64,000 nucleotides of DNA from Verrucomicrobiales bacterium (GCA_031266335.1 JAISBF010000031.1:12507-76506), one strand, 5' to 3'; shown: positions 12,688 through 38,778, numbered from the stretch's first letter. A program made the numbers and translations. The notes: a model not told the origin generated them from the sequence alone.

Positions 12688-12691
12688 TATT

Positions 12692-15600
12692 TCACGGATA
12701 GGTGCCGGGTTCGTGGAAATCCAGCGTCAGCGAGGTTATTTTGTCCGGCCCGCCGCCGAGGGTGAGGATGATTTCATTGTCAGCGCCGAACTTGACCCAC
12801 GGCGTGATGTTCAGCGTCAGCACGTCCGCCTCCTTGGTGTGCGGGCGCAGATAGTGACCGTTGATGACCACGCCGGTCATGCGATTGCCGCGGATGCACA
12901 CCGTGCGCCCGCGCGCCTCGTCACTGAGCCTGACCACGCGGCGCAGCGCCAGCGTGTTTTTTTCCGTCGTGCCGGGCACGCTGATAGCGGGGCGCCAGTT
13001 CAAGTAATCGCCGCTCGGCTGCCATTCGCCGGCCAAATCCTGCCGCGCCGCCGGGTCAGGGTAAAACGACATCCACGACGACTCGCGCGCGCCGAGTTTC
13101 ACGCGCTCGTTCTTCTCGCTGCGCACCTCAACCGCGAACACATGCGTGCTGCCCGGCGCCACCGGCAGCGCCATGCAGCGGTCGGCGAGCGGCTGCCCGT
13201 CCATATAATAACGCGTCCAGCCGTCGCAATGCGTGAGCCGCAGGTCGATGGTGCCGCCGCGCCAGTCGTCGGGGATGGTCACTGCCTTGCGAAAGATGCC
13301 GCGTTTCGCGCCGGGGTGGTCGGGATGTGTGAACACGTCGAACGCGCGCGTCTCCCAGTCACGGTCAGCGAACTCAACCGCCACCTCCGGCGGCAGCGCG
13401 CCCGCGCCCAGCTCGACGTTGTCGAGCACCTTGAATCGCCAGCCCTCGGTGAGGTTGACCATGCGCAGCGGCGCGGGCGTGGGGAACGGCTTGCCCAGGT
13501 CGCCGTCAGCGCCGCTCCACCAGCCGCGTTGCAACGCGAACCACTCGTCCGCCGCGCCACTGACGGTGCGCGGGGTGAGGTAAACATTGACTATGCACGG
13601 CGCCGGCACCCGCACCGGTAGCCGCCCGTCACTCATCGCGTGCCGCGCGCCGGTCTGCAAATTCACGAACCACGCGGGGCGCAGCGGCTCGTCCATCACC
13701 ACCGCGCCGGTCAACTCGGCATTCTGGCTGCGGTTGAACACGACCCACACGTCGTACAGGCCGTTGTTGCTGATGAAGCGCCGCCAGATGACGTTCTGGT
13801 TTTCACCGTCAGCCTCGAAACGCGCCGGCACCGGCGCCAGGCCGAGCCATTGGAACAAGTGGTGGAAAAACGGATTGCCGCGCTTCGCGTCAAACTGCGG
13901 GCCGACGGTGACCACATAACCTTTGCCGATTTTACGCCAGCCGACCGCCGCGCTGCCGTCTTTCCACTTGGCGAGGATTTGCGCGTCGTCCTCGACCCGC
14001 TGATAATGCGCGCCGCTGATGGTGCCGAAGTCAAGGCCGGCGGGCAAAAACCCGCGCGCCTCCTCAGCGGCGCTGACGCTGACGGTGTCGTGGTAAAAAT
14101 ATTTTCCCGGTTTCGCGCGAAAACCGCTGAGCCGCGCGAGCGGCCACGAGTCCGGCACCTCGTAGCTGTGCCGCCCGCTGTCGCCGTAAGTCACGAACAC
14201 GCCGCCGTGCTTGACGAAGCGCTCGATGCCGCTGACGGTGGCCTCGTCCATGAACGCGGTGTTGGCGTCCACGATGACGCGGTATTTGTCGCACTGATTG
14301 TTTTGGAACGACAGCTCGGTCACCGCGTCGCTTTCATAAATCGGGCCGGGCGGCACGCCCTCCAGCGGGCTGAACAAGTGGCGACTGTTGAACCCGGACA
14401 CGAAGCCGCTGCCGCGCAACAGCGGCTCACCGTCAGCGTTCGCGGCGAGGAAGCCGTTGCCCGTCCGCGGGTTCATCCACGGGAACCCCGGCAGCCGCTC
14501 GACGCGCGCGGAATAAATCGCCGCCACCTGCGCCGTGGTCGCGTGGTAGCGGCCGATGGTCGAATACACGTTGATGTAATCCTCGAAATTTTGCTTGATG
14601 TCCGGCCGCCAATAAACCTCGCCCATGTGCTGGAACAAATCCACCGCGTTCACGCCCTCGGTCAACCAGTTGCCGAACGAGAACGACAAATGCTCCGCGA
14701 TGGCCGGCCCCTGGCTCGGCTCGGTGCTCATCGGCAGCCCCGCCGCGCGCATGTGCGCCGGCAGCCGGTCGCACCACCAGCCGCCCATGTAGCCGGTGTT
14801 GTGGAAGTCGCCGCCGAACTCAATCGCCGCCTGCTGGATCACGTCCACGTAGGAATCCGGCGACATCAAAATAATCCCGCGGTCGGGGTCGGCCTGGCGA
14901 ATCATCTGCATCCCGCGCCGCACGACCTGCCCGCGAATGTGAAACATCCAGTGATAAAAATCCGCCCACCGCGCGTTTTTCGCCGCGCCGAGCAGCGGGT
15001 AATTTTGCGGCGCCTCGCCGGACAAATAAATCCGGTAGTTCATCATGCCGCGCGGCAGCCGCAGCGCCAGCGTGTTGCCGCTGTCCTTCAGCAGCGCCGT
15101 CACGTCGTACGCCCCGCGATGGCTCTCGTCGAACAGCGGGATGGCCGCCTCCAGCGCCTTGCCGTTGAGCGCGACGACGACGCGCTGGCTCAGGTCCTTG
15201 TTCCGCGCCGCGGCGCGCACGTCGTTCAGGTCCCAGACGTAGAGCCAGATTTTTTTGTGCGCCGAGCGCCAGCCACTGTCAGCGTCGAAGTGCCGCCGCC
15301 ACAACACCGGCTTCGGCGCGATGGTGCCGGCCAGCCGGGCGAGGCCGTGGTCGGGCGCGACAATGGTCGGCCACGCGCGGTCGTCGAAGTCCGCCGCCAG
15401 CGCCGCGTCATTGTCAGCGGCCTCGTAACTCGCGCGCCACTCGCCCTGCAAATCCCGCGCGTCCGGTCCCCAGCCGAAAAACTCCGCCACCTCCGGCACC
15501 CGCACGTCCGCCCACGAGCGCAGCGGCAAATCCCAGCGCGCTGCCAGTGCCGCCACGGTCTGATATTTGTCGCGCAAATACTCGCGATAATTCGCGTCCG

Positions 15601-16696
15601 CCAGCGGCCCGTGCTCGACCAGGTAATCCGCCGGCCCGTGCCCCATCTCGCCGTGCGGCTCCAGCCACGCGCTGATGTTCTCGATGCCGCGGGTTTTGCG
15701 CACGATTTGCTGCAACTGCGCGAACAGCGTGTCTTGCGCCTCCTCCGCGCACCACGACACGGTCTCGCCGCCCCAGCGCATCGAGCCGTAATACGAGCCG
15801 AGAAAGCCCGGCGCGAACTGCATCATCGTCAGCGGCTCGCGGTTATACACCCAGAAATGCGTCTTCGCCGTGAGGTCGAGATTCATCCCCACCGGCAGCC
15901 CCTTGTTGACCGCCGAGCGCAGCACCCATTCCCAGCCGACGTCGTTGGTCAGCCACTCCGCGCTGTGCCCGTATTGCGCGCCGGTCCAAATGGTGACGCC
16001 CGCGCGACGGTTCGCCGCGGCGAACTCGAAATCCTGCGCCTGGTCGTAGGCCGGGTCGCCGTGAATGCCGTCCGGCCCCAGCTTCAGCCAGCCCGGCCCG
16101 TAGTAAAAATGGAAACCGTATTTGTCAAACCGGTCGAGCCACATCGGCACCGGCACCGCCGCTGAGGATGACCAGCCGTCGCCCAGCGTCAGCGCCTTGC
16201 CTAACAAGTCGCCGAGCGCCGCCGCCGACGCTGACGCCGCGACCACCACCGTGCCGCCGCGTTGCAACGCCGCCACCGCGCCCTGCGCGCCGGCGTCGCG
16301 GAAATTGACGGTCTGCCCGCCGACGCTGACCGTGCCCGGCTTGGTGCCCGGCGGCAGCGAGTCGAGGTCGGACAAATATTTCGCCTGCGTCAACTTCGCC
16401 TTCTCCTCGCTCTCGCAGTTGATTTGCAACAACGTGCCGCCGTCAGCGCCGCGCCAACTGGTACCGCTGACCGTGCCGTAGGCGCGCAATTTTTTCGGCG
16501 CGAACATCCCGCTCACCGTCAGCGCCGTCCCGTTTACCAGCGTCGCCGGCGCGCGGTCAGCCGCGGCGGTGGCGGTTTTTTTTGCCGCGCCAGTGTCAGC
16601 GGCGGATTTTTTCGGCAACCGCTGCCCGCACACGGTCAGCGTCAGCGCCGGCAGCAAAGTCAAGGTCAACAACCATTTCATAGCATTTCCTGTCAT
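12692..16696 (-). CDS. giant secreted GH42-like multidomain glycosidase, paralog P1 of 5
   Basis: Signal peptide. AWLEPHGEMGHG is a clan GH-A acid/base-like xEP. REYLRDKYQTVAALAARW resembles the GH42 region. LPMSTEPSQGP is a GH42-type nucleophile region. YRVIVD...FVKHGGVFVTYGDSG resembles the GH42 trimerisation/GATase1-like domain. There are three galactose-binding-like beta-sandwich segments. The C-terminus is ...DFHEPGTYP. Confidence 0.65.
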   Translation of the reverse strand: MTGNAMKWLLTLTLLPALTLTVCGQRLPKKSAADTGAAKKTATAAADRAPATLVNGTALTVSGMFAPKKLRAYGTVSGTSWRGADGGTLLQINCESEEKAKLTQAKYLSDLDSLPPGTKPGTVSVGGQTVNFRDAGAQGAVAALQRGGTVVVAASASAAALGDLLGKALTLGDGWSSSAAVPVPMWLDRFDKYGFHFYYGPGWLKLGPDGIHGDPAYDQAQDFEFAAANRRAGVTIWTGAQYGHSAEWLTNDVGWEWVLRSAVNKGLPVGMNLDLTAKTHFWVYNREPLTMMQFAPGFLGSYYGSMRWGGETVSWCAEEAQDTLFAQLQQIVRKTRGIENISAWLEPHGEMGHGPADYLVEHGPLADANYREYLRDKYQTVAALAARWDLPLRSWADVRVPEVAEFFGWGPDARDLQGEWRASYEAADNDAALAADFDDRAWPTIVAPDHGLARLAGTIAPKPVLWRRHFDADSGWRSAHKKIWLYVWDLNDVRAAARNKDLSQRVVVALNGKALEAAIPLFDESHRGAYDVTALLKDSGNTLALRLPRGMMNYRIYLSGEAPQNYPLLGAAKNARWADFYHWMFHIRGQVVRRGMQMIRQADPDRGIILMSPDSYVDVIQQAAIEFGGDFHNTGYMGGWWCDRLPAHMRAAGLPMSTEPSQGPAIAEHLSFSFGNWLTEGVNAVDLFQHMGEVYWRPDIKQNFEDYINVYSTIGRYHATTAQVAAIYSARVERLPGFPWMNPRTGNGFLAANADGEPLLRGSGFVSGFNSRHLFSPLEGVPPGPIYESDAVTELSFQNNQCDKYRVIVDANTAFMDEATVSGIERFVKHGGVFVTYGDSGRHSYEVPDSWPLARLSGFRAKPGKYFYHDTVSVSAAEEARGFLPAGLDFGTISGAHYQRVEDDAQILAKWKDGSAAVGWRKIGKGYVVTVGPQFDAKRGNPFFHHLFQWLGLAPVPARFEADGENQNVIWRRFISNNGLYDVWVVFNRSQNAELTGAVVMDEPLRPAWFVNLQTGARHAMSDGRLPVRVPAPCIVNVYLTPRTVSGAADEWFALQRGWWSGADGDLGKPFPTPAPLRMVNLTEGWRFKVLDNVELGAGALPPEVAVEFADRDWETRAFDVFTHPDHPGAKRGIFRKAVTIPDDWRGGTIDLRLTHCDGWTRYYMDGQPLADRCMALPVAPGSTHVFAVEVRSEKNERVKLGARESSWMSFYPDPAARQDLAGEWQPSGDYLNWRPAISVPGTTEKNTLALRRVVRLSDEARGRTVCIRGNRMTGVVINGHYLRPHTKEADVLTLNITPWVKFGADNEIILTLGGGPDKITSLTLDFHEPGTYP

Positions 16697-19600
16697 GGAT
16701 ATGTCCCCGGTTCGTGAAAGTCCAGCGACAGCGTGGTGATGGGGTCCGGCCCGCCGCCGAGGGTGAGGATGATTTCATTGTCAGCGCCGGGTTTCACCCA
16801 CGGCGTGATGTTCAGCGTCAGCACATCGGCCTCCTTGGTGTGCGGGCGCAGATAATGACCGTTGATGACCACGCCGGTCATGCGATTGCCGCGGATGCAC
16901 ACCGTGCGCCCGCGCGCCTCGTCGCTGACCCTGACCACGCGGCGCAACGCCAGCGTGTTTTTCTCCGTCGTGCCGGGCACGCTGACGGTGGGACGCCAGT
17001 TCAAGTAATCGCCGCTCGGCTGCCACTCGCCGGACAAATCCTGCCGCGCCGCCGGATTGGGATAGAAGGCCAGCCACGACGCCTCGGCGGCGCCGAGGAA
17101 TTTGCGCCCGTTGTCGCTTTGGATATCCGCGGCAATCATAAATTTATCGCCCGGCCGCAGGTCCAGGTCGTCGTTGCGACCAATCGGCTGGCCGTTCAGA
17201 TAATACTGCTCCCGCCCGCGCCCGTAGGCTGACGACAACCGCAGGGAGATGGTGCCGTTGAGCCAGTTGTCAGGGATTTGGATTTCGCGCCGGAACACGC
17301 CGCGCCGCGCGTCGGGGTGGTCGGGCAGGGTGAACACATTGAGCGGGCGCGTCTCCCAGTCGCCGTCGCTGACGGTGGCGGCGACCTCCGGCGGCGGGTT
17401 GGTTTTTTGCTCCAGCGCCAGCGGCTTGAATTTCCAGCCGTCGGTGACGCCGACCGACCACTTCGGCGCCGGCTGGGGGAACGGTTTGCCGGGATCACCG
17501 GCAGCGCCGCTCCACCAGCCGCGTTGCAGCGTGAACCACTCGTCCGCCGCGCCGCTGACGGTGCGCGGCGTGAGCCACACGTTGACCGCCATCGGCGGCA
17601 GTTGCACCGTCAGCGTGTTGCCGGCGAGCGGGTGCCGCGCGGAGGTCTGCACGTCCACCAACCATGTCGGGCGTGCCGGCGTGTCCAGCGTCAGCGTGGC
17701 GGTCAGCGCGGAATCGCGGGTGCAGTTGAACACCACCCACACGTCGTAGAGGCCGCTGTTGCTGACGAAATGCCGCCACACCACGGTGCGCGGATTGCCG
17801 TCGCTGACCGTGATGTTCGCCGGCACCGGCTTGATGTTCAGCCACGCGAACAGGCTCTTGAAAAAGTCGTTGCCGCGTTGCATGTCAAACTGCGGGCCGA
17901 CCGTGACGACATAACCCTTGCCGATTTTTCGCAGGCCGACCGCCGCGCTGCCGTCGTTCCACTTGGCGAGGATTTGCGCGTCGTCCTCGATCCGCTGATA
18001 GTGCGCGCCGCCGATGGTGCCGAGGTCAAGGTCGGCGGGCAAAAACCCGCGCGCATCCTCAGCGGCGCTGACGCTGACCGTGCCGTTGGTGAAGTATTTG
18101 CCCGGCTTGGAACGGAAGCCGGTGAGTCGCGCGAGCGGCCACGAATCCGGCACCTCATAGGTATGCCGCCCGCTGTCGCCGTAAGTCACGAACACGCCGC
18201 CGTTCCTGACGAAGCGCTCGATGCCGCTGACGGTGGCCTCGTCCATGAACGAGGTGCTGGTGTCCACGATGACGCGATATTTGCCGCACTGGTCTTTTTG
18301 GAACGACAACTCGGTCACCGCGTCGCTCTCGAAATACAGGCAGCCTTCCGGCAGCAAGCCGTTGCCAAGCGGGCTGAACAGGCTGCGGACGTTGAACTGC
18401 GACACGTAGGCGTTGCCGCGAAACAGCGGCTCACCGTCAGCGTTCGTCTGCGCGCGCGCGTGCAGCCACGGGAAGCCGAGCAGCCGCTCGACGCGCCCGG
18501 AATACAGCGCCGCGATTTGCGCCGTCTCCGCGTGGTAACGCCCGACACTCGTATAGACGCGCATGTAATCGTCGAAATTTTTCTTCACCTCCGGCCACCA
18601 CAGCGTCTCGCCCATGTGCTGGAAAAAGTCCACCGCGTTCACGCCCTCGGTCAGCCAGTGCCCGACATACAGCGGCAGCTCCCACGCCGCCTGCGGCCCG
18701 CCGCCCGGCTCGACGCTCATCGGCAGCCCCGCCGCGCGCATGTAGGCGGCCAGCCGGTCGCACCACCAGGCCGCCATGTAGCCGGTGTTGTGAAAATCGC
18801 CGCCGTACTCAATCGCCGCCTGATGGATGGCCTCGACGTAATAATCCGGCGACATCAGGATAATCCCGCGGTCGGGGTCGGCCTGGCGAATCATTTGCAT
18901 CCCGCGCCGCAGCACGTTCGCGCGGATGTGAAAGGTCCAGTTGTAAAAATCCGTCCACTGCGCGTTGCCGCCCGCGCCGAGCAGCGGATACGCGCGCGGC
19001 GCCTCGCCTGATAAGTAAATACGATAGTTGACCGCGCCGCGCGGCAGCCGCAGCGCCAGCACGTTGCCGCTGTCCTTGAGCAGCGCCGTCACGTCAAACG
19101 CCGCGCGGTGGCTCTCGTCGAACAGCGGATTTTTTTCCTCCAATACCTTGCCGTTCAACGCCGCCACCACGCGCAGGCTGGCGTCTTTTTTCCGCCCGTG
19201 GTCAATGTTGTTGTTCATGTCCCAGATATAGAGCCAGACTTTTTTTTGCGCCGCGCGCCAAATACTGTCAGCGTCGAAGTGCCGCCGCCACAACACCGGC
19301 TTCGGCGCGATGGTGCCGGCCAGCCGGCCCAGCGCGTGATCGGGCGCGACGATGGTCGGCCACGCGCGGTCGTCGAAGTCCGCCGCCAGCGCCGCGTCAT
19401 TGTCAGCGGCCTCGTAGCTCGCACGCCACTCGCCTTTCAAGTCCCGCGCGTCCGGCCCCCAGCCCATAAACTCCGCCACCTCCGGCACCTTCACGTCGTC
19501 CCACGCGCGCAAATTTTTCTCCCAGCGCGCTGACAGTGCGGCGACGGTCCGGTATTTGCCGCGCAGGTATTCGCGGTAGCTCGCGTCCGCCAGCGGCCCG

Positions 19601-20694
19601 AACTCGACCAGGTAATCCGCCGGCCCGTGCCCCATCTCGCCGTGCGGTTCCAGCCACGCGCTGACGTTCTCCAAATCGGTGTATTTCCGCACGATTTGTT
19701 GCAACTGCGCGAACAGCAAGTCCTGCGCATCGTCAGCGCACCACGACACCGTCTCGCCGCCCCAGCGCATCGAGCCGTAATACGACCCCATGAAGCCCGG
19801 CGCGAATTGCATCATGCTTTCCGGCCAGCGGTTATACACCCAAAAATGCGTCTTCGACGTGAGGTCCACGTTCATCCCCACCGGCAGCCCCTTTTTGACC
19901 GCCGCGCGCACCGCCCAGTCCCACACCGGGTCGTTGGTCAGCCACTCCGCGCTGTGCCCCCACTGCGCGCCGACCCAAATGGTGATGCCGGCGTGGTTGC
20001 TCGCTTCCGCGAAATCGAAATCCTCCGCCAGGTCGTAAGTCAGGTCCGGGCGGCCGTTCAGGCCGAATTGCAACTGCTCCGGCAGCGGCTTCAGCCGGTA
20101 CCCGTAATAAAAATGCCAGCCGTATTGGTCAAACCGGTCGAGCCACATCGGCACTTTCACCGCCGCTGACGATGACCAGCCGTCGCCCACCGTCAGCGTC
20201 TTGCCTAACAAGTCGCCAAGCGCCGCCGCCGTCGGCGCCGTCGCGACCACCAGCGTGTCCCCGCGCTGCAACGCCGCGATCACGCCCTGCGCGCCGACGT
20301 CGCGGAAGTTGACGGTCTGCCCGCTGACGGTCAGCGTCCCCGGCTTGGTGCCCGGCGGCAGCGTGTCGAGGTCGGACAAATATTTCGCCTGCGCCAGTTG
20401 CGCCTTGGCCTCGCTCTCGCACTTGATTTGCAACAACGTGCCGCCGTCAGCGGCCCGCCAACTGGCGCCGCTGACCGTGCCGTACCCGCGCAGTTTTTTC
20501 GGCGCGAACACGCCGCCCGCCGTCAGCGCCGCGGTGTTCACCGCCGCCGGCGGACGGTCGGCGACCGCGGTTTTTTTCGCCGCGCCACCGTCAGCGGTGG
20601 CGCGCGGTTTGCTGAGGCGCTGCCCGCTGGCGTTCAGCGTCAGCGCCAGCAGCAAAGCCAGGGTGGTTTGCCAGTGCATAGTTTTAGCTTTCAT
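16693..20694 (-). CDS. giant secreted GH42-like multidomain glycosidase, paralog P2
   Basis: Collinear with P1 over its full length. Its stop overlaps the P1 start (ATGA at 16693-16696). The N-terminus MKAKTMHWQTTLALLLALTLN matches P4 over these 21 residues. Confidence 0.65.
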   Translation of the reverse strand: MKAKTMHWQTTLALLLALTLNASGQRLSKPRATADGGAAKKTAVADRPPAAVNTAALTAGGVFAPKKLRGYGTVSGASWRAADGGTLLQIKCESEAKAQLAQAKYLSDLDTLPPGTKPGTLTVSGQTVNFRDVGAQGVIAALQRGDTLVVATAPTAAALGDLLGKTLTVGDGWSSSAAVKVPMWLDRFDQYGWHFYYGYRLKPLPEQLQFGLNGRPDLTYDLAEDFDFAEASNHAGITIWVGAQWGHSAEWLTNDPVWDWAVRAAVKKGLPVGMNVDLTSKTHFWVYNRWPESMMQFAPGFMGSYYGSMRWGGETVSWCADDAQDLLFAQLQQIVRKYTDLENVSAWLEPHGEMGHGPADYLVEFGPLADASYREYLRGKYRTVAALSARWEKNLRAWDDVKVPEVAEFMGWGPDARDLKGEWRASYEAADNDAALAADFDDRAWPTIVAPDHALGRLAGTIAPKPVLWRRHFDADSIWRAAQKKVWLYIWDMNNNIDHGRKKDASLRVVAALNGKVLEEKNPLFDESHRAAFDVTALLKDSGNVLALRLPRGAVNYRIYLSGEAPRAYPLLGAGGNAQWTDFYNWTFHIRANVLRRGMQMIRQADPDRGIILMSPDYYVEAIHQAAIEYGGDFHNTGYMAAWWCDRLAAYMRAAGLPMSVEPGGGPQAAWELPLYVGHWLTEGVNAVDFFQHMGETLWWPEVKKNFDDYMRVYTSVGRYHAETAQIAALYSGRVERLLGFPWLHARAQTNADGEPLFRGNAYVSQFNVRSLFSPLGNGLLPEGCLYFESDAVTELSFQKDQCGKYRVIVDTSTSFMDEATVSGIERFVRNGGVFVTYGDSGRHTYEVPDSWPLARLTGFRSKPGKYFTNGTVSVSAAEDARGFLPADLDLGTIGGAHYQRIEDDAQILAKWNDGSAAVGLRKIGKGYVVTVGPQFDMQRGNDFFKSLFAWLNIKPVPANITVSDGNPRTVVWRHFVSNSGLYDVWVVFNCTRDSALTATLTLDTPARPTWLVDVQTSARHPLAGNTLTVQLPPMAVNVWLTPRTVSGAADEWFTLQRGWWSGAAGDPGKPFPQPAPKWSVGVTDGWKFKPLALEQKTNPPPEVAATVSDGDWETRPLNVFTLPDHPDARRGVFRREIQIPDNWLNGTISLRLSSAYGRGREQYYLNGQPIGRNDDLDLRPGDKFMIAADIQSDNGRKFLGAAEASWLAFYPNPAARQDLSGEWQPSGDYLNWRPTVSVPGTTEKNTLALRRVVRVSDEARGRTVCIRGNRMTGVVINGHYLRPHTKEADVLTLNITPWVKPGADNEIILTLGGGPDPITTLSLDFHEPGTYP

Positions 20695-20695
20695 T

Positions 20696-26865: not shown

Positions 26866-26867
26866 AA

Positions 26868-26903
26868 TGATATTCATGTTGGTATTGATATTCATGTTGG
26901 TTT
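26868..26903. repeat. two direct copies of TGATATTCATGTTGGT with a 19-nt period in the AT-rich spacer upstream of the GH36-like gene
   Basis: tgatattcatgttggt occurs at 26868-26883 and again at 26887-26902. On the coding strand this reads ACCAACATGAATATCA twice, immediately 5' of the GH36 ATG. Confidence 0.8.
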
Positions 26904-26932
26904 GCATTGCCGATGGTTCACCGTCAGCGTCT

Positions 26933-29900
26933 TCACGGATAGGTGCCCGGCTCGTGGAATTCCAGCGCCAGTTCGGCGACCTCATGGCCGGGGCCGATGA
27001 TGATCAATTCATTGTCAGCGTCGGGCCGCACCCACGGCGTGATGTTCAGCGTCAGCCAGCCCGATTCCTTGGTGTGCGGGCGGACGTAACGGCCGTTGAT
27101 CACCACGCCGCTGACGTTCAGCCCCTGCAATACCACGGTGCGCCCGCGGGCCGCCGCGTCCACTTGCACCGTCCGCCGCAACGCGACGGTCTGCGCCTCC
27201 ATGCGCCCGGGCAGCTTGACGGCCGGCCGCCAGTTCAGGTAGTCGCCGGTTGGCTGCCAGTCGCCGGCCAGGTCCTGCCGCGCCGCCGGCGCGGGATGAT
27301 AGACCAGCCACGTCGCGCCGCGCGCGCCGAGCAGCGCGCGGTCGCGGTCGCTCTGGATGTCCACGGCCAGCAAATGAGTTTCGCCCGGCTTGACCGCCAG
27401 CACCGCGTTGCGGTCGGCCAGCGGCTTGCCGTCGAGATACAGGCGCGCGGCCCCGGTGAATTCCGGCGACCGCAGCCCGATGACGCCGTTCCCCCACGTG
27501 GCGGGAATTTGAATCGCGCGACGGAACACGGCGCGGCGCGCGCCCGGATGGTCGGGATGGGTAAAGGTGTCCAGCGCGCGCGTCTCCCAGTCGTCGTCGC
27601 TGACGCTGAGGCCGACCTCGGTCAGCGGGTCGTTGTTCTGCGTCAACTCAAGCACCTTGAACTTCCAGCCCGCAGTGATGTCCACAATCCATTTCTGGTC
27701 GGGCTGGGGAAACGGTTTGCCCGGGTCGCCGTCAGCGCCGCTCCACCAGCCGCGTTGCAGCGCGAACCATTCGTCCGCCGCGCCGCTGACCGCGCGCGGG
27801 GTGAGGTAAACATTGACGATGAACGGCGGCGGCAGCTTGACCGGGATGCGCCCGTCGCTCATCGCGTGGCGCTCGCCGGTTTTCAGGTCAATGAACCACG
27901 CCGGGCGCAGCGGCGCGTCCAGCACCACCGCGCCGGACAATTCCTCCCGGCTGCGGTTGAACACCACCCACACGTCGTACAGGCCGCTGTTGCTGACGTA
28001 GTGCCGCCAGAGCGCGCGCTGGTTGCCGCTGGTTTCGGCGTGTTCGAAATGCGCCGGCACGGGCGTGAGTTCGAGCCACCGGAACAGGTGGCGGAAAAAC
28101 TCGCCGCCGGCCGGGTTGGCAAACCACAGCGGGCCGACCGTAACCACGTACCCCTGGCCCACCTGCCGCAAGCCGAGCGCCGCGCTGCCGTCCTTCCAGG
28201 TGGCGAGTATCTGCGCGTCATCCGCCACCCGCTGATAGTGCGCGCCGTTGATCGGTTTCTCGCCGAGCGTATAGTCGGCGGGCAGGAACCCGCGCTCCGA
28301 CTTGACGCTGGCGGTGTCGGGGAAAAAGTATTTGCCCGGCTTGGCGCGGAACCCGCTGAGCCTGGCCAGCGGCCAGGTGTCCGGCTCCTCGTAGGAATGC
28401 CGCCCGCTGTCACCGTAAGTCACGAACACCCCGCCGTTCTTGACGAACCGCTCGATGCCGCTGACGGTGGCCTCGTCCATGAACGACGTGCTGGTGTCCA
28501 CGATAACGCGGTATTTGCCGCACTGGTCTTTTTGGAACGACAGCTCGGTCACCGCGTCGCTCTCGTAAACCGGGCTGTCCGGCACCGACTCCATCGGGCT
28601 GAAACTGGCGCGGACGTTGAACGCGGAGACAAAGGCATTGCCACGATAATACGGTTCGCCGGCGGCGTTCACCGAGTCGCGCGCCGCCAGCCACGGGAAG
28701 CCCAGCAGCCGCTCGACCCGCCCCGAATACAGCGCCGCCACCTGCGCGGTCGCCGCGTGATAACGGCCGGTTGTCGTGTAGATGTTCACGTACTCCTCGA
28801 AATTCTTGCGAATGTCGTCGTGCCAGTACACCTCGCCCATGTATTGGAACAAATCCACCGCGTTCACCCCCTCGGTGATCCAGTGGCCGAACGCGCCTGA
28901 CAAGTGATCCGGCGCATACGGCCCCTGGCTCGGCTCCGTCGTCATCGGCAGCCCCGCCGCGCGCATGTAGGCCGGCAGCCGGTCGCACCACCAGCCGCCC
29001 ATGTAGCCGGTGTTGTGGAAATCGCCGCCGTAGTCAATCGCCGCCTGCTGGATCACGTCCACGTAGGAATCCGGCGACATCAAAATAATCCCGCGGTCGG
29101 GATCGACCTGCCGCACCATCTGCATCCCGCGCCGCAACGCCCGCTCGCGGATGTAAAACGTCCAGTTATAAAAATCCGCCCACCGCGCGTTTTTGCCCGC
29201 GCCGAGATTGGGATACGCCTTCGGCTCCTCGCCGGACAGATACACGCGGTAATTGACCATGCCGCGCCCCAGCCGCAGCGCCAGCACATTGCCGCTATCT
29301 TTCACCAGCCCGGTCACGTCAAACACCGCGCGGTGATCCTGGTTGTACAACGGCGGCGTCTCCGCCAGGATTTTGCCGTTCAGCGCGACGACAATCCGCC
29401 GGCTGGGATCCGGCTCCTTTTGCGCGACGGCGCGGTTGTCGTTCATGTCCCACACGTACAGCCAGACTTTTTTATGCGCCGACAGCCAGCCGCTGTCAGC
29501 GTCAAAGTGCCGCCGCCACAGCACCGGTTTCGGCGCGACGGTGCCCGCCAGCCGGCCGAGGCCGTGGCCGGGGGCGCTGATGGTCGGCCACTGGCCGTCG
29601 TCAAAGTCCGCTGTTAGCGCCGTGTCATTGTCAGCGTCCGCGTAACTCACCCGCCAGTCGCCGCGCAAGTCCAGCGCGTCCGGCCCCCAGCCGAGAAACT
29701 CCGCGACCTCCGGCGCCTTGATCTCGTCCCACGAGCGCAACGGCAAATCCCAGCGCGCCGCCACCGCTGACAGTGCGCCGTACTTGCCCCGCAAATATTC
29801 GCGATAATTGGCGTCCGCCACCGGCCCGTACTCGACCAGCAAATCCGCCGGCCCGTGCCCCATTTCCTCGTGCGGCTCCAGCCAGGCGGTGATGTTTTCC

Positions 29901-30904
29901 ACCGGATGGTATTTCTTCACCATCTGCTGAATCTGCGACAGCAGCGTGTCCTGCCCCAGGTCCGAGCACCACGAGACCATCGCGCCGATGCCGAAATTCA
30001 TCGAGCCGTAATACGAACCCTGGAAATCCGGCGCGAACTGCATCAGCGTCAGCGGGTCGCGGTTGTAAATCCAGTAATGAATTTTCGAGTTCAACTCCAG
30101 GTTCAACCCGACGGTCAGGTCCTGCCGCACGGCGGAACGCAACGCCCAGTCCCAGCGCCCGTCGTTGTTCAGCCACTCGGCGGTCTCGCCGAACTGCGCG
30201 CCCGTCCACATGGTGATGCCGGCGTGGTTCTTCGCCGCAAACGCGAAATCCTGCGCCGGATCGTAGGAAGGAATCGGCCGCCGGTTTTCATCGGGCTTCA
30301 GGATGCCCGGCCCGTAATAAAAATGGAAACTGTACTTGTCGAACCGGTCAAGCCACCTCGGCACCTTCGTTTCCGCTGACGATGACCAATCGCTGACGGC
30401 GCCCAGCGTCTTGCCTAACAAATCACCAAGCGCCGCCGCTGACGCTGACGCCGCGACCACCACCGTGTCCCCGCGCCGCAACGCCGCGATCACCCCCTGC
30501 GCGCCGGCATCGCGGAGGCTGACGCTGTGCCCGCCGACGGTCAGCGTTCCCGGCTTGGTGCCCGGCGGCAGCGTGTCGAGGTCGGACAAATATTTCGCCT
30601 GCGTCAGCCTGGCCTTGTCCTCGCTCTCGCAATTGATTTGCAGCAACGTGCCACCGTCAGCGCCGCGCCAACTGGTACCGCTGACCGTGCCATACGCGCG
30701 CAATTTTTTCGCCGCGAACGTGCCGGTCACCGTCAGCGCCGCAGTGTTTATCGTCGCGGTCGGACGGTCGGCGACCGCGGTGGTTTTCACCGCAGCGCCA
30801 GCGGCGGCGGCGCGCGGTTTCGTGATACGCTGCCCGCTGACGTTCAACGTCAGCGCCAGCAGCAGGGCCAGGGTGGTTTGCCAGTGCATAGTTTTAGCTT
30901 TCAT
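26933..30904 (-). CDS. giant secreted GH42-like multidomain glycosidase, paralog P4 (most divergent)
   Basis: Same domain order. Motifs AWLEPHEEMGHG, LPMTTEPSQGP and YRVIVDTSTSFMDEATVSGIERFVKNGGVFVTYGDSG. The C-terminus ...EFHEPGTYP is more diverged at the DNA level than the other four. Confidence 0.65.
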   Translation of the reverse strand: MKAKTMHWQTTLALLLALTLNVSGQRITKPRAAAAGAAVKTTAVADRPTATINTAALTVTGTFAAKKLRAYGTVSGTSWRGADGGTLLQINCESEDKARLTQAKYLSDLDTLPPGTKPGTLTVGGHSVSLRDAGAQGVIAALRRGDTVVVAASASAAALGDLLGKTLGAVSDWSSSAETKVPRWLDRFDKYSFHFYYGPGILKPDENRRPIPSYDPAQDFAFAAKNHAGITMWTGAQFGETAEWLNNDGRWDWALRSAVRQDLTVGLNLELNSKIHYWIYNRDPLTLMQFAPDFQGSYYGSMNFGIGAMVSWCSDLGQDTLLSQIQQMVKKYHPVENITAWLEPHEEMGHGPADLLVEYGPVADANYREYLRGKYGALSAVAARWDLPLRSWDEIKAPEVAEFLGWGPDALDLRGDWRVSYADADNDTALTADFDDGQWPTISAPGHGLGRLAGTVAPKPVLWRRHFDADSGWLSAHKKVWLYVWDMNDNRAVAQKEPDPSRRIVVALNGKILAETPPLYNQDHRAVFDVTGLVKDSGNVLALRLGRGMVNYRVYLSGEEPKAYPNLGAGKNARWADFYNWTFYIRERALRRGMQMVRQVDPDRGIILMSPDSYVDVIQQAAIDYGGDFHNTGYMGGWWCDRLPAYMRAAGLPMTTEPSQGPYAPDHLSGAFGHWITEGVNAVDLFQYMGEVYWHDDIRKNFEEYVNIYTTTGRYHAATAQVAALYSGRVERLLGFPWLAARDSVNAAGEPYYRGNAFVSAFNVRASFSPMESVPDSPVYESDAVTELSFQKDQCGKYRVIVDTSTSFMDEATVSGIERFVKNGGVFVTYGDSGRHSYEEPDTWPLARLSGFRAKPGKYFFPDTASVKSERGFLPADYTLGEKPINGAHYQRVADDAQILATWKDGSAALGLRQVGQGYVVTVGPLWFANPAGGEFFRHLFRWLELTPVPAHFEHAETSGNQRALWRHYVSNSGLYDVWVVFNRSREELSGAVVLDAPLRPAWFIDLKTGERHAMSDGRIPVKLPPPFIVNVYLTPRAVSGAADEWFALQRGWWSGADGDPGKPFPQPDQKWIVDITAGWKFKVLELTQNNDPLTEVGLSVSDDDWETRALDTFTHPDHPGARRAVFRRAIQIPATWGNGVIGLRSPEFTGAARLYLDGKPLADRNAVLAVKPGETHLLAVDIQSDRDRALLGARGATWLVYHPAPAARQDLAGDWQPTGDYLNWRPAVKLPGRMEAQTVALRRTVQVDAAARGRTVVLQGLNVSGVVINGRYVRPHTKESGWLTLNITPWVRPDADNELIIIGPGHEVAELALEFHEPGTYP

Positions 30905-30905
30905 T

Positions 30906-33900
30906 TTATGGATAGGTGCCGGGTGCGTGGAATTCCAGCGCCAGCGAAGTTATTGGGTCCGGCCCGCCGCCGAGGGTGAGGATGATTTCATTGTCAGCGC
31001 CGGGCTTGACCCACGGCGTGATGTTCAGCGTCAGTTCGTCGGCCTCCTTGGTGTGCGGGCGCAGATAATGACCGTTGATGACGACGCCGGTCATGCGATT
31101 GCCGCGGATACATACCGTGCGCCCGCGCGCCGCGTCGCTGACCCTGACCACCCGGCGCAACGCCAGCGTGTTCTGCTCCGTCGTGCCGGGCACGCTGACG
31201 GTGGCGCGCCAGTGCAAGTAATCGCCGCTCGGCTGCCACTCGCCCGCCAAATCCTGTCGCGCCGCCGGGTCGGGATGGAACGACAGCCACGACGCCTCGC
31301 GCGCGCCGAGCAGCGCGCGCCCGTTGTTCTCGCCGCGCACGTCAATGGCGAACACGTGTTTGCTGCCCGGCGTCACCGGCAGCGCCATGCAGCGGTCGGC
31401 CAGCGGCTGGCCGTCCATGTAATATCGCATCCAGCCGTGACCATGCGCCAGCCGCAGGTCAATGGCGCCGCCGCGCCAGTCGTCGGGAATGCGCACTGTC
31501 TTGCGAAACACGCCGCGCCGCGCGCCCGGATGGTCGGGATTGGTGAACAGGTCGAACGCGCGCGTCTCCCAGCCGCTATCGTCAAACCCGGCGGCGATTT
31601 CCGCCGGCGGTTCGGCGTGGTCGGTATTGTCGAGCACTTTGAATTTCCAGCCCTCGGTGAGGTTAACCAGCCGCTTGGGCGCCGGCCGGGGAAACGGCCG
31701 GCCCAGGTCATCGGCAGCGCCGCCCCACCAGCCGCGTTGCAAGGCGAACCACTCGTCCGCCGCGCCGCTGACCGCGCGCGGGGTGAGCCAGATATTGACC
31801 GCCATCGGCGGCACGGTCACTGGCAGCGTGTTTTCAGTGAGCGGGTGCCGCGCCGCGGTTTGCAAATTCCAACACCACGCGGGCGGCGCCGGCACCGTCA
31901 GCGTCAGCGTCGCGTCAAGCGCTTGGTCGCGGCTGACGTTGAACACCACCCACACATCGTACAAGCCGCTGTTGCTGACAAAATGCCGCCACACCACGGC
32001 GCGCGTGTCGCCGCCGCTGACGGTGAGGCTGCCCGGCACCGGCGCGATGTGCAGCCACGCGAACAGGCGGTCGAAAAAGGCGTTGCCGCGCGGGAAATCG
32101 AAGTGCGGGCCGACGGTGATGACACAGCCCTTGCCGATTTTTCTCAGGCCGACCGCCGCGCTGCCGTCGTTCCACTTGGCGAGGACTTGCGCGTCGTCCG
32201 CGACCCGCTGATAGTGGCCGCCGCCGAGGGTGCCGAGGTCAAGGTCAGCGGGCAAAAACTCCCGCGCCGCGCCGGCGCTGACACTGACGGTGCCGTTGGT
32301 GAAATATTTGCCTGGCCGCGCGCGAAAACCGGTCAACCGCGCCAGCGGCCAGGTGTCCGGCTCCTCGTAGGAGTGCCGTCCGCTGTCGCCGTAAGTCACG
32401 AACACGCCGCCGTTTTGCACGTAGCGCTCGATGCCGCTGACGGTGGCCTCGTCCATGAACGAGGTGCTAGTGTCCACGATGACGCGGTATTTGCCGCACT
32501 GGTCTTTCTGGAACGACAGCTCGGTCACCGCGTCGCTTTCAAAATACCGCGCGCCGGCCGGCGGCAAGCCGCCGCCGAGCGGGCTGAACAGGCCGCGCGT
32601 GTTGAATTGCGAAACGTAAGCCGCGCCGCGATACAACAACTCACCGTCAGCGTTTGTCTGCTCGCGCGCGCCGGCCAGCCACGGGAAGTCAAGCAACTGC
32701 TCGACGCGCGCGGAATACAGCGCGGCGATGCTCGCGGTCGCCGCGTGATAGCGCCCGACGCTGGTATAGACATTGCGGTAGTCCTCGAAATTTTTCCGGA
32801 TGTCCGGCCACCACTGCACCTCGCCCATGTGCTGAAACAAATCCACCGCGTTCACGCCCTCGGTGAGCCAGTGCCCGACGAACAGCGGCAGGTCCATCAC
32901 CGTCTGCGGCCCGTTGCCCGGCTCGACGCTCGTCGGCAAGCCCGCCGCGCGCATGTAGGCGGCCAGCCGGTCGCACCACCAGCCGGCCATGTAGCCGGTG
33001 TTGCGGAAGTCGCCGCCGTACTCGATGGCGGACTGCTGAAGCACATCCACGTAGGCATCCGGCGCCATCAAGACAATCCCGCGGTCGGGGTCGGCCTGGC
33101 GAATCATCTGCATCCCGCGCCGCAGCACCTGCCCGCGCAGGTGAAACATCCAGTCATAAAAATCCACCCACCGCGCGTTGCCGGCCGCGCCGAGCATGGG
33201 ATACGCGCGCGGCGCCTCGCCTGACAAGTAAATACGGTAATTGACCATGCCGCGCGGCAGCCGCAGCGCCAGCACGTTGCCGTTGTCCCGCACCAGCCCG
33301 GTCACGTCGAACGCGGCGCGGTGGCTCTCGTGAAACAGCGGGATTTTTTCCTCCAGCACCTGGCCGTTCAACGCGACGGTGACGCGCTGGCTCGCGTCGT
33401 CGGGCTGCCGGCGGTTGTCGTTCAGGTCCCACACGTACAGCCAGACTTTTTTTCGCGCTGACAGCCAAATACTATCCGCGTCGAAATGCCGCCGCCACAA
33501 CACCGGTTTCGGCGCGATGGTGCCCGCCAGCCGGCCGAGGCCGTGGCCGGGCGCGACCAGGGTCGGCCACGCGCCGTCGTCAAAATTCACCGTCAGCGCC
33601 GCGTCATCGTCAGCGGCCGCGTAACTCACCCGCCACTCGCCCTTTAAATCCCGCGCGTCCGGCCCCCAGCCGAAAAACTCCGCGATTTCCGGCGCCCGCA
33701 CATCGTCCCACGAGCGTAAATTTTGCTCCCAGCGCGCTGACAGTGCCGCAACGGTCCGGTATTTCTCCCGCAAATATTGCCGGTAACTCGCATCCGCCAG
33801 CGGCCCGTGCTCGACCAGGTAATCCGCCGGCCCGTGTCCCATTTCCCCGTGCGGCTCCAGCCACGCGCTGACGTTCTCGGTGTCCTTGAACTTGCGCACG

Positions 33901-34901
33901 ATTTGCTGCAATTGCGCGAACAGCAGGTCTTGCGCGTCGTCCGCGCACCACGAGACCATCGCGCCGAGGCCGAAGTTCATCGAGCCGTAGTAGGTGCCTT
34001 GAAAATCCGGCGCGAATTGCATCAGGCTTTCCGGCCAGCGGTTGTACACCCAGAAATGCGTGCTTGACGTGAGATCCACGTTCATCCCCACTGGCAGCCC
34101 GTTTTGCACCGCCGCGCGCAGCACCCACTCCCAGCCGACCTCGTTGGTCAACCACTCCGCGCTGTGGCCGTATTGCGCGCCGGTCCAAATCGTGAGGCCG
34201 GCATGGTTGCTCGCCGCCGCGAACGCGAAATCCTCCGCCGGGTCGTAAGCCGGGTCCGGGCGGCCGTCCAGGCCAAACCGCAATTGGTCGGGCAGCGGCT
34301 TCAACCGCCCCGGCCCGTAGTAGAAATGCCAGCCGTATTTGTCAAAGCGGTCGAGCCACATCGGCACTTTCACCGCCGCTGCCGATGACCAGCCGTCGCC
34401 CACCGTCAGCGTCTTGCCTAACAAGTTGCCAAGCGCCGCCGCTGACGTTGCCGCCGCGACCACCAGCGTGTCCCCGCGCCGCAACGCCGCGAGCACGCCT
34501 TGCGCGCCGGCGTCGCGGAGGCTGACGGTCTGCCCGCCGACGGTCAGCGTGCCCGGCTTGGTGCCCGGCGGCAGCGTGTCGAGGTCGGACAAATATTTCG
34601 CCTGCGTCAGTCGCGCCTTGGCCTCGCTCTCGCAATTGATTTGCAGCAACGCGCCGCCGTCAGCGGCCCGCCAACTGACGCCGCTGACCGTGCCGTACGC
34701 GCGCAATTTTTTCGCCGCGAACGTGCCGATCACCGTCAGCGCCGCGGTGTTCACCGCCGCGCCATGATCAGCGGCGGCGTCCGGCTTTGGGGCGGCGCGC
34801 GGTTGGGGAACCCGTTGCCCGCAGGCGGTCACGCACAGCGTCAGCGCCAGTCCGCCCGCCGTCAGCGCCACCCGGGTTGCCCGCGCGCCGCGATATTTCA
34901 C
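30906..34901 (-). CDS. giant secreted GH42-like multidomain glycosidase, paralog P5
   Basis: Collinear with P1-P4. It has a lipobox-like LTLCVTACGQ. The GTG start overlaps the upstream GH172 stop (GTGA). Confidence 0.65.
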   Translation of the reverse strand: MKYRGARATRVALTAGGLALTLCVTACGQRVPQPRAAPKPDAAADHGAAVNTAALTVIGTFAAKKLRAYGTVSGVSWRAADGGALLQINCESEAKARLTQAKYLSDLDTLPPGTKPGTLTVGGQTVSLRDAGAQGVLAALRRGDTLVVAAATSAAALGNLLGKTLTVGDGWSSAAAVKVPMWLDRFDKYGWHFYYGPGRLKPLPDQLRFGLDGRPDPAYDPAEDFAFAAASNHAGLTIWTGAQYGHSAEWLTNEVGWEWVLRAAVQNGLPVGMNVDLTSSTHFWVYNRWPESLMQFAPDFQGTYYGSMNFGLGAMVSWCADDAQDLLFAQLQQIVRKFKDTENVSAWLEPHGEMGHGPADYLVEHGPLADASYRQYLREKYRTVAALSARWEQNLRSWDDVRAPEIAEFFGWGPDARDLKGEWRVSYAAADDDAALTVNFDDGAWPTLVAPGHGLGRLAGTIAPKPVLWRRHFDADSIWLSARKKVWLYVWDLNDNRRQPDDASQRVTVALNGQVLEEKIPLFHESHRAAFDVTGLVRDNGNVLALRLPRGMVNYRIYLSGEAPRAYPMLGAAGNARWVDFYDWMFHLRGQVLRRGMQMIRQADPDRGIVLMAPDAYVDVLQQSAIEYGGDFRNTGYMAGWWCDRLAAYMRAAGLPTSVEPGNGPQTVMDLPLFVGHWLTEGVNAVDLFQHMGEVQWWPDIRKNFEDYRNVYTSVGRYHAATASIAALYSARVEQLLDFPWLAGAREQTNADGELLYRGAAYVSQFNTRGLFSPLGGGLPPAGARYFESDAVTELSFQKDQCGKYRVIVDTSTSFMDEATVSGIERYVQNGGVFVTYGDSGRHSYEEPDTWPLARLTGFRARPGKYFTNGTVSVSAGAAREFLPADLDLGTLGGGHYQRVADDAQVLAKWNDGSAAVGLRKIGKGCVITVGPHFDFPRGNAFFDRLFAWLHIAPVPGSLTVSGGDTRAVVWRHFVSNSGLYDVWVVFNVSRDQALDATLTLTVPAPPAWCWNLQTAARHPLTENTLPVTVPPMAVNIWLTPRAVSGAADEWFALQRGWWGGAADDLGRPFPRPAPKRLVNLTEGWKFKVLDNTDHAEPPAEIAAGFDDSGWETRAFDLFTNPDHPGARRGVFRKTVRIPDDWRGGAIDLRLAHGHGWMRYYMDGQPLADRCMALPVTPGSKHVFAIDVRGENNGRALLGAREASWLSFHPDPAARQDLAGEWQPSGDYLHWRATVSVPGTTEQNTLALRRVVRVSDAARGRTVCIRGNRMTGVVINGHYLRPHTKEADELTLNITPWVKPGADNEIILTLGGGPDPITSLALEFHAPGTYP

Positions 34902-38776: not shown

Positions 38777-38778
38777 GC

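Follow-up and report, generated by a model that had tools for sequence, protein, structure and literature searches.

Gene conversion between tandem paralogs is textbook biology. For bacteria, interlocus (ectopic) conversion and concerted evolution of paralogs have been reported in a prokaryotic survey (PMC6053082) and for repeat families of Mycobacterium tuberculosis (PMC12046097, PMC13061034). In the current study, we examine five tandem paralogs, designated P1 to P5, which occupy positions 12692-34901 of a 64,000-nucleotide (nt) stretch of DNA from a 'Verrucomicrobiales bacterium' (GCA_031266335.1 JAISBF010000031.1:12507-76506). This whole stretch is referred to as the window. It lies on an 81,571-bp contig of a metagenome-assembled genome (MAG), and P1 is 100% identical to the protein MDR1303895.1 (LBK76_01605). 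We judge it likely, with a probability of roughly 0.85, that these genes were shaped by repeated homologous recombination in short patches, for the most part gene conversion, between old paralogs arranged as direct repeats.

The array resembles the bacterial examples cited above in that short tracts appear to have been exchanged between the paralogs of one genome to yield mosaic genes, in that some stretches are more alike among paralogs than among orthologs, and in that transfer is non-reciprocal, leaving the donor unchanged. It differs from them in being a tandem array of five 4-kb glycosidase-like genes from an uncultured member of the Verrucomicrobiales, wherein one terminal domain is homogenised in four of the five copies and the adjacent domain exists in three types. 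Unlike whole-gene concerted evolution, the mosaic described here is mostly old and stable. A further parallel is provided by HMA4 of Arabidopsis halleri (PMC3749932; bioRxiv 10.1101/2025.10.29.685298), whose tandem copies also alternate between homogenised and divergent segments, a pattern that has been attributed to conversion counteracted, in particular segments, by selection for divergence. However, HMA4 is eukaryotic and underwent a recent triplication, whereas the five copies studied here are bacterial, old and probably operonic, and the edges of their blocks match domains. Our literature search revealed no specific prior description of gene conversion in glycosidase arrays of this type. 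The process is already known; the enzyme family is uncharacterised.

The five open reading frames (ORFs), which a first-pass annotation of the window had located exactly as listed below, are all intact (1323-1339 amino acids, aa). Their pairwise identity is 67-77% at the aa level and 75-82% at the nt level, with P4 as the outlier. They belong to a block of nine close-packed minus-strand genes (window 8.3-37.1 kb), transcribed in the order GH172c, P5, P4, a GH36-like gene, P3, P2, P1, GH172b and GH172a, where GH stands for glycoside hydrolase. As an outgroup we used an independently assembled MAG from a termite gut (Gx485_bin111), whose copies are named R1 to R5.

P1, 12692-16696, minus strand: 1334 aa, secreted GH42-like multidomain protein; ortholog R1 is 96.3% identical (nt)
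P2, 16693-20694, minus strand: 1333 aa; the start is free of overlap and the stop overlaps the P1 start (ATGA); R2 95.2% identical (nt)
P3, 20696-24715, minus strand: 1339 aa; separated from the GH36-like gene by a 95-nt AT-rich gap; R3 94.4% identical (nt)
P4, 26933-30904, minus strand: 1323 aa, the most divergent copy; R4 95.5% identical (nt)
P5, 30906-34901, minus strand: 1331 aa; the GTG start overlaps the stop of GH172c; R5 only 85.4% identical (nt)

When identity is followed in sliding windows, the closest pair of copies shifts along the gene. Neighbour-joining trees with bootstrap were made for 300-nt windows, and unless stated otherwise, alignment positions refer to nt of the codon alignment of the five copies. 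The following splits were recovered.

Split {3,5}: bootstrap 95-98%, alignment nt 1-300 and 1051-1650
Split {2,5}: bootstrap 98-100%, alignment nt 451-750 and 1801-3300
Split {3,4}: bootstrap 93-100%, alignment nt 451-900 and 2401-3000
Split {2,3}: bootstrap 95-100%, alignment nt 751-1050 and 3301-3900
Split {1,5}: bootstrap 98-100%, alignment nt 3301-3900

Several of these splits are mutually incompatible, and each reaches 95-100% bootstrap in some windows, and therefore no single tree holds along the gene. The copies are mosaics with conflicting phylogenies, as the first-pass annotation had proposed. Each of the 10 possible 2|3 splits of the five copies finds support, at 34-81 sites that form clusters along the gene. 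The pairwise homoplasy index (PHI) was 0.432, compared with 0.516 +/- 0.005 in 2000 permutations, none of which gave so low a value (z = -17.6). The longest runs of concordant polymorphic sites for P1-P2, P1-P3, P1-P4 and P2-P4 were reached in 0 of 5000 permutations; for P2-P3 (p=0.0002), P3-P4 (p=0.0024) and the pairs P1-P5, P2-P5 and P3-P5 (p=0.014-0.025) they were also longer than expected, and for P4-P5 the longest run was not significant (permutation p=0.09). The peptides originally quoted to illustrate the conflict are correctly placed, with YGYRLKPLPEQ... at aa 197 of P2, YGPGRLKPLPDQ... at aa 195 of P5, YKPGLLRWDEN... at aa 212 of P3 and YGPGILKPDEN... at aa 197 of P4. Likewise, PDDWRGG together with YYMDGQPLADRCMALPV is found in P1 and P5 only, and PDNWLNGT in P2 and P3 only.

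The segments distinguished along the genes are termed blocks, and are listed here from the 3' end of the genes to the 5' end.

Block G in P1, 12695-13048, minus strand: homogenised 3'-terminal block, encodes the last beta-sandwich (approximately aa 1216-1333)
Block G in P2, 16696-17049, minus strand: homogenised; holds the 74-nt perfect run common to P3
Block G in P3, 20699-21052, minus strand: homogenised 3'-terminal block
Block G in P5, 30909-31262, minus strand: homogenised 3'-terminal block
Block G in P4, 26936-27283, minus strand: non-homogenised; 61-74% identical to the other four copies and 96.6% to R4
Block F type A in P1, 13049-13492, minus strand: penultimate beta-sandwich, pairs with P5
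Block F type A in P5, 31263-31700, minus strand: pairs with P1
Block F type B in P2, 17050-17487, minus strand: pairs with P3, and with R5 of the other genome
Block F type B in P3, 21053-21490, minus strand: pairs with P2
Block F third type in P4, 27284-27718, minus strand: a type of its own
Block D in P1, 14816-14965, minus strand: recent exchange with P3 (and P4); contains an 89-nt perfect match
Block D in P3, 22805-22954, minus strand: the corresponding segment
Block C in P3, 23105-23695, minus strand: pairs with P5; {3,5} bootstrap 95-98%
Block C in P5, 33318-33908, minus strand: pairs with P3
Block A in P2, 20590-20694, minus strand: signal-peptide 5' end common to P4, including a 40-nt perfect identity
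Block A in P4, 30800-30904, minus strand: signal-peptide 5' end common to P2

In 60-150-nt windows over the last approximately 350 nt, P1, P2, P3 and P5 are 88-97% identical, compared with 59-87% in the neighbouring block. The description of these 3' ends as nearly identical captures a real contrast, albeit in slightly generous words for an average of approximately 92-95%. P4, which is the only copy outside this homogenisation, is clearly more diverged there, as had also been observed. The 74-nt run (16751-16824 and 20754-20827) and the 40-nt run (20657-20696 and 30867-30906) on which the earlier argument relied are both perfect and maximal, and MKAKTMHWQTTLALLLALTLN indeed begins both P2 and P4. 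In block D, P1 is 96% identical to P3 and 96% to P4, and its 89-nt perfect match is the longest between any two paralogs of the window. Block A of P2 and P4 exhibits a run of 33 concordant polymorphic sites. The penultimate sandwich encoded by block F occurs in three types (P1/P5, P2/P3/R5 and P4), R5 being copy-3-like in this region, and the groups {1,5} and {2,3} receive 98-100% and 97-100% bootstrap, respectively.

Synonymous sites indicate how these similarities arose. The proportion of synonymous differences (pS) was calculated per block with bootstrap errors, a measure that replaced a PHI restricted to synonymous sites, which had too few sites. Given that the G+C content of third codon positions (GC3) is 0.85-0.87 in the paralogs, we estimate that synonymous differences saturate near a pS of 0.45-0.5. 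For block G, pS is 0.15-0.22 among P1, P2, P3 and P5 versus 0.28-0.35 in the core, and it is 0.44-0.49 between P4 and the other copies. Block D (alignment nt 1800-1950) gives 0.06 for P1-P3 and 0.14 for P1-P4, versus 0.30-0.37 for pairs that include P2, and block C (1050-1650) gives 0.20 for P3-P5 versus 0.28-0.44 for other pairs. The corresponding values are 0.24 for P2-P4 versus 0.39-0.53 for other pairs in block A (1-150), and 0.27 for P2-P3 versus 0.35-0.45 for the comparison pairs in block F (3300-3750). Because the low-pS blocks are alike at the DNA level, the similarity in blocks G, D, C, A and F reflects exchange and not just constraint.

Block F also diverges at the protein level. The proportion of nonsynonymous differences (pN) is 0.15 for P1-P5 and 0.16 for P2-P3, compared with 0.27-0.35 for other pairs, and the ratio of nonsynonymous to synonymous rates (dN/dS) rises to 0.6-0.95 between penultimate-domain types versus 0.03-0.48 between orthologs. 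Within alignment nt 1950-3300, pS is flat (0.29-0.41), and the {2,5} and {3,4} groupings are evident in pN (0.12-0.13 versus 0.20).

The related genome allows the exchanges to be dated. Its 19,457-bp and 9,977-bp contigs join inside R2 to give the same nine-gene order, copy number and intact ORFs. Each of P1-P4 is closest to its ortholog (92-100% identity) in nearly every 150-nt window; ortholog synonymous divergence (dS) is 0.09-0.16, and dN/dS for copies 1-4 is 0.16-0.26. In the relative, copies 1-4 show the same mosaics at 94-96% identity, and their block patterns are therefore older than the split between the two genomes and have been stable since. Similarly, the intact ORFs in both genomes and the low ortholog dN/dS values argue that all copies are functional and under purifying selection. 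The first-pass annotation had regarded the array as prone to expansion and contraction. We found no evidence for this view, in that both genomes have five intact copies whose order, and whose arrangement on either side of the GH36-like gene, is identical.

The 3' end behaves differently. From alignment nt approximately 3750 onward, the nearest neighbours are paralogs (R1-R2 97%, R3-R5 95%, P2-P3 96-97%, P5-P2 95%), whereas orthologs are only 89-95% identical (P1-R1 92-93%, P3-R3 90-92%, P5-R5 89%). Ortholog dS at the 3' end is 0.26-0.29 for copies 3 and 5; core values are 0.15 for copy 3 and 0.28 for copy 5, the latter inflated by the tracts in R5 described below. At the 3' end, 14 informative sites unite paralogs of the same genome and 7 unite ortholog pairs, whereas the core has 29 and 317, respectively (Fisher p = 7e-10); for copies 1-3 only, the ratios are 8:9 and 18:618. 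In copies 1, 2, 3 and 5, the 3' end has therefore continued to evolve in concert after the split. Purifying selection also contributes to the similarity of the 3' ends (dN/dS 0.16-0.29), since the C-terminal motif ...NITPWV...PGTYP is conserved family-wide, out to Planctomycetota.

Along R5, runs of 5-type and of 3-type states follow one another with sharp transitions. Its 3-type tracts (nt approximately 590-720, 1650-1800, 1960-2560 and 2990-3700 of a 10-sequence codon alignment) amount to approximately 1.6 kb and explain why R5 is only 85.4% identical to P5. These tracts are 91-98% identical to P3/R3 and only 61-83% to P5, while R3 and P3 are 94-99% identical to each other in the same positions. 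R5 is thus copy-3-like where R3 is unchanged, and the transfer was non-reciprocal. Judged by eye only, the edges of the tracts fall near stretches that are conserved in every copy, a pattern that homologous recombination would be expected to produce. The claim of 'ongoing' recombination is accordingly best divided, in that most of the mosaic is old, and the 3'-terminal approximately 350 nt and the tracts in R5 were exchanged at or after the split.

With these observations in mind, we propose the following history. The five genes would be old duplicates whose synonymous sites approach saturation wherever they were not homogenised, and internal segments of approximately 100-700 nt would have been exchanged between the direct repeats, mostly non-reciprocally, with exchanges anchored in conserved stretches common to all copies. 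An old layer may comprise {2,5} and {3,4} over alignment nt approximately 1950-3300, seen mainly at sites that change amino acids. An intermediate layer may comprise {3,5} at nt 1050-1650, {2,4} in the signal peptide and, within the penultimate beta-sandwich, both {2,3} and {1,5}. In the recent layer, {1,3,4} would have exchanged nt 1800-1950, and the last beta-sandwich would still be undergoing homogenisation in copies 1, 2, 3 and 5. Selection would tolerate or favour a uniform last domain in four copies while keeping distinct versions of the penultimate one. RecA-type recombination is the presumed mechanism. The functional outcome would be a set of co-expressed enzymes with a common terminal domain, which differ in a penultimate carbohydrate-binding-like domain and in segments of the catalytic body.

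Because the stop-start junctions are shared, duplication of a two-gene unit (5 with 3, 4 with 2) had been suggested. The first approximately 300 nt ({3,5} 96%, {2,4} 76%) and nt 1051-1650 ({3,5}) fit this idea, but most of the gene shows the crossed pattern {2,5}/{3,4}, and at the junction the 3' end of P3 is nearer to P2 than to P5. Such a duplication is at best weakly indicated by these sequence patterns.

Several points weigh against the history proposed above. A PHI on synonymous third positions, taken from codons that are amino-acid-invariant in the five copies, was not significant (88 sites, z=-0.65, p=0.29), and therefore the older {2,5}/{3,4} pattern rests mainly on amino-acid-changing sites. 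With pS nearly flat there, differing constraint is a possible cause of the {2,5}/{3,4} blocks, although a less likely one than old exchange. Among the sites that distinguish P3 from R3, R5 agrees with either one equally often (33:33), and thus its tracts date to about the time of the split and not clearly after it. Alternatively, P5 might be the replaced copy, with an unsampled donor; the direction adopted here (R5 converted or P5 replaced) depends on P5 matching nothing sampled. Note also that the collections searched contained one close relative only (a genome scan gave one close genome, and a scan of metagenome contigs gave distant relatives only, at most 52% identical), that both genomes are MAGs from short reads, and that the recombination tests were our own implementations rather than GENECONV, RDP or 3SEQ.

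The strongest competitor, which we nonetheless regard as unlikely, is exchange with alleles from outside the array, with homologous recombination between strains or horizontally transferred segments as the source. The divergent tracts of P5 match no sampled sequence closely, with best matches of only 72-89% to P1/R1 or P2/R2, and identity between orthologs ranges over 85-100% from one comparison window to the next. Moreover, the two genomes share the block (window 8322-37146) but not its flanks, and the block sits in a high-GC island beside three transposase genes. For the Ffh protein, the best match from outside this MAG is only 87% identical (aa), compared with 94-96% (nt) for orthologs of P1-P4 and 90.6-96.1% (aa) for those of the GH36 and GH172 proteins. 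However, most blocks have a partner within the array ({2,3}, {1,5}, {3,5}, {2,4} and {1,3,4}), the tracts in R5 match copy 3 of its own array at 91-98% identity, and the 3'-end variants common to the paralogs of one genome are absent from the other. Outside import is therefore at most a contributor, chiefly to copy 5.

Each of the five P genes encodes a secreted protein of approximately 1330 aa, which starts with a signal peptide (block A) and a small alpha/beta domain. A GH42-like body follows, made up of a TIM barrel, a GH42M-like domain and a beta-sandwich, and two further beta-sandwiches resembling GH2 N-terminal domains complete the C-terminus, an architecture that is partly a matter of predicted structure. 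Matches to Pfam are sub-threshold only (GH42, GH42M and DUF4350). For PF02449, whose gathering threshold is 21 bits, P5 scores 18.6 and P3 16 bits, and there is no match in P1, P2 or P4; the trimerisation domain PF08532 scores 17.5-24 bits in all five copies, just under its threshold of 25.8 bits. No NCBIfam family matches the P proteins, and a sequence search of the PDB returned no informative relative.

Structure models were built from P2. The AlphaFold model of aa 26-1060 (predicted local distance difference test score, pLDDT, 85.5; predicted template modelling score, pTM, 0.88) contains the three-domain GH42 fold of TIM barrel, alpha/beta domain and beta-sandwich. With Foldseek, it matches the whole GH42 chain of 4oif (E = 1.6e-21; target-normalised template modelling score, TM, 0.66) and 3tts (target-normalised TM 0.70), while the GH35 structure 7vky and the GH164 structure 6t7g match equally well, in each case with sequence identity of 10-13%. 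A second model (aa 1040-1333, pLDDT 87.9) shows two beta-sandwiches of the kind that forms the N-terminal sugar-binding domain of GH2 enzymes, and Foldseek finds GH2 N-terminal domains for them at approximately 1e-8. The P proteins thus share the three-domain build of GH42 beta-galactosidases (Gan42B, PDB 4oif) and of 7vky and 6t7g, which also belong to clan GH-A. They are twice the length of GH42 enzymes and carry additional domains, namely one of alpha/beta type at the N-terminus and two GH2-N-like sandwiches at the C-terminus, and their likeness is one of predicted fold, at 10-13% identity and with Pfam scores below gathering thresholds.

We found about 35 relatives among 5.8 billion proteins, in Verrucomicrobiota, Planctomycetota, Armatimonadota and related groups, and the architecture is kept across approximately 30 homologues, down to 32% identity. 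In 11 close homologues, the invariant glutamates (P1 numbering) are E346 and E350 in the motif WLEPHGE and E659 in an E-P motif. The family-wide alignment likewise has invariant glutamates, E328, E380 and E637, numbered along a fragment. The related MAG also carries a second array (positions 2968-16823), where a 691-aa protein is followed by three family members (1272, 1331 and 1282 aa); the 1331-aa protein shares 64% identity with P2, and those on either side of it only approximately 24%. Tandem multiplicity therefore recurs in this family.

Block F corresponds to aa approximately 1070-1215, which is the penultimate sandwich, and block G to the last one. The exchanged units are thus domain-sized at the C-terminus, where the edges of F and G match the modelled domains. 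A more speculative idea is that of a selected, domain-wise combinatorial system, in which a glycoside hydrolase family not described before, carried by a mobile high-GC island of 29 kb, retains a common last domain and reshuffles the others. Conversion may keep the last domain identical in four co-expressed paralogs for a shared partner or interface, such as hetero-oligomer contacts like those of trimeric GH42, or else for a common anchoring or export factor, and reshuffling of the penultimate domain and pieces of the catalytic body may create new substrate specificities in the termite gut. The domain-exact edges, the three penultimate types and the exclusion of P4 may all be compatible with this scheme, but none of them demonstrates it, and we consider it improbable, slightly more so than import from outside.

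Far less probable is the view that no recombination has taken place, and that a single duplication history was overlaid by region-specific constraint, rate differences or convergent selection. The pattern over nt 1950-3300, where pS is nearly equal for all pairs and pN singles out {2,5} and {3,4}, is in keeping with such an account, as are the non-significant synonymous PHI and the family-wide C-terminal motif. Rate variation, however, cannot produce incompatible groupings each at 95-100% bootstrap, and pS falls by a factor of two to five in blocks A, C, D and G, with different pairs affected from block to block. P4 keeps the 3' protein motif, yet is saturated at synonymous sites (pS 0.44-0.49). 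The genome-specific 3' variants common to paralogs (Fisher p = 7e-10) and the sharp flips of R5 between 5-type and 3-type runs also argue against it, and for the recent blocks this account is already largely refuted.

We consider even less credible an artefact of short-read assembly or binning, whereby chimeric paths or co-assembled strains would have produced the array or its mosaic. Both sequences are MAG contigs, and the relative's assembly breaks inside R2, where the contig ends overlap by approximately 50 nt with 2 mismatches, a sign of strain heterogeneity that indicates co-existing strains in that sample. However, a chimeric path would give blocks that are 100% identical, rather than the 83-97% measured for the shared blocks. 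No exact match between paralogs exceeds 89 nt in the window or 99 nt in the relative, and these lengths fall short of a final k-mer of 119, a value we infer from the k119_ contig names of the relative, such that the assembly parameters of the window's contig may differ. The earlier concern that the array is prone to assembly collapse is not borne out by these lengths. All 10 ORFs are intact, and an independent assembly, most likely from another sample (its locus-tag series is different), repeats the gene order and the block pattern of copies 1-4, so the array is no artefact. Finally, programmed diversification by a diversity-generating retroelement or by a silent-cassette system like pilE/pilS or vlsE, which near-identical 3' ends beside a hypervariable block superficially recall (as template and variable repeats, or cassette flanks), can be set aside as the least plausible of all, given that Pfam scans of the main ORFs revealed no reverse transcriptase or site-specific recombinase, that the differences involve all four bases without adenine specificity, that all five copies are full-length and under purifying selection, each with a start codon and a signal peptide, and that copies 1-4 have retained their blocks unaltered in pattern since the two genomes separated.

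Repeated gene conversion among the paralogs therefore remains our preferred explanation, and it makes the locus useful in several ways. It is a clean bacterial case with an outgroup genome, in which old, intermediate and current layers of conversion are separable, and in which the tract edges fall at protein domains such that the terminal domain is uniform and its neighbour is held in three types. In practical terms, the array is correctly assembled, and trees of the P genes based on single domains will mislead. The locus also draws attention to an uncharacterised GH42-like family of approximately 1300 aa, which is a candidate for enzymology because it recurs in arrays of the related termite-gut MAG and is found beside GH172 in the conserved array.

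The remaining genes of the nine-gene block are as follows.

GH36/melibiase-like gene, 24811-26985, minus strand: between P4 and P3; Pfam Melibiase 3.5e-27; 94.5% identical (aa) to the relative's gene
GH172 (DUF2961) gene c, 34898-36970, minus strand: directly upstream of P5 and first gene of the block; DUF2961 6.7e-72
GH172b, 10630-12687, minus strand: downstream of P1
GH172a, 8500-10605, minus strand: downstream of GH172b

The GH36-like ORF as listed overlaps the 3' end of P4 by 53 nt. In the related genome, the corresponding gene call is 698 aa and leaves a 25-nt gap after the P4 ortholog, and thus the true start is probably near 26907. Spacing between genes is otherwise -4 to +25 nt, the sole exception being the 95-nt gap before P3, and the junctions read TGA-A-ATG (P3/P2), TAA-A-ATG (P5/P4) and ATGA (P2/P1, overlapping). 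Given this short spacing, co-transcription of the nine genes in one or two operons is likely. Scans for consensus promoters and terminators gave counts near the expectation from shuffled sequence and defined no transcription units. The signal peptides of P5 and R5 end in the lipobox-like VTAC|GQR; that of P1 has LTVC where R1 has LTVY, and those of P2, P3 and P4 lack a cysteine. The paralogs may therefore differ in localisation, as lipoproteins or soluble proteins.

Known GH172 loci degrade D-arabinan or alpha-D-fructofuranoside (PMC10115798, PMC8605356), and, as here, they cluster several GH172 (DUF2961) genes with other glycosidases; there are three GH172 copies in this array, as in the D-arabinan system of Dysgonomonas gadei (bioRxiv 10.64898/2026.08.13.744632). 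The described loci (PMC10115798, PMC8605356) have no documented link to the 1330-aa family. When the three GH172 proteins of the window were compared by tblastn with distant relatives (E <= 1e-10), only one neighbouring GH172-like match was found (locus L012). GH172c is 90.6% identical (aa) to its ortholog in the related genome. The three GH172 paralogs are 50-62% identical (aa) to one another and have no near-identical tracts, although two are adjacent. For these genes, tandem position alone has not resulted in homogenisation.

Synteny with Gx485_bin111 is limited to a 28.8-kb block (window 8322-37146, 91-94% identical at the nt level). The relative's contigs end with 353 nt and 176 nt that have no match in the window, and therefore the converging GH38 gene (5753-8332, plus strand) and the insertion sequence (IS) cluster are not shared. 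The closest non-self matches to Ffh (87%, 84% and 81% aa) come from other samples or MAGs, and none can be assigned to the related MAG, whereas the GH36 and GH172 orthologs are 90.6-96.1% identical (aa) between both genomes.

The glycosidase block coincides with a high-GC island at approximately 5800-37100 (edges at approximately 5700 and 37100-39600), where the G+C fraction is 0.62-0.73, versus 0.41-0.56 to its left and 0.44-0.61 to its right. GC-biased conversion was considered as the cause of this composition and rejected, since the single-copy GH38, GH36 and GH172 genes are equally GC-rich. Three transposase ORFs lie at the right edge of the island.

IS5 transposase ORF, 37219-38040, minus strand
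IS1595-type transposase ORF, 38114-38674, plus strand
DDE_Tnp_1 transposase ORF, 38902-39624, plus strand

The high G+C content and the transposase ORFs suggest horizontal acquisition or IS-mediated rearrangement. Beyond them, the window contains a second carbohydrate locus of ordinary G+C content, which also encodes a Laminin_G_3 protein, an HpcH/HpaI aldolase, a major facilitator superfamily (MFS) sugar transporter and a GH130 phosphorylase, and, farther on, an ORF located among lipopolysaccharide and ABC-transporter genes.

Second carbohydrate locus, 40619-52446, plus strand
1137-aa protein with CBM4_9 and CBM9 domains, 43000-46413, plus strand: in the second carbohydrate locus
GH38-N-like protein, 47280-49349, plus strand: in the second carbohydrate locus
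261-aa ORF with a homing-endonuclease-associated HNH repeat, 53517-54302, minus strand: PF18780 5e-20

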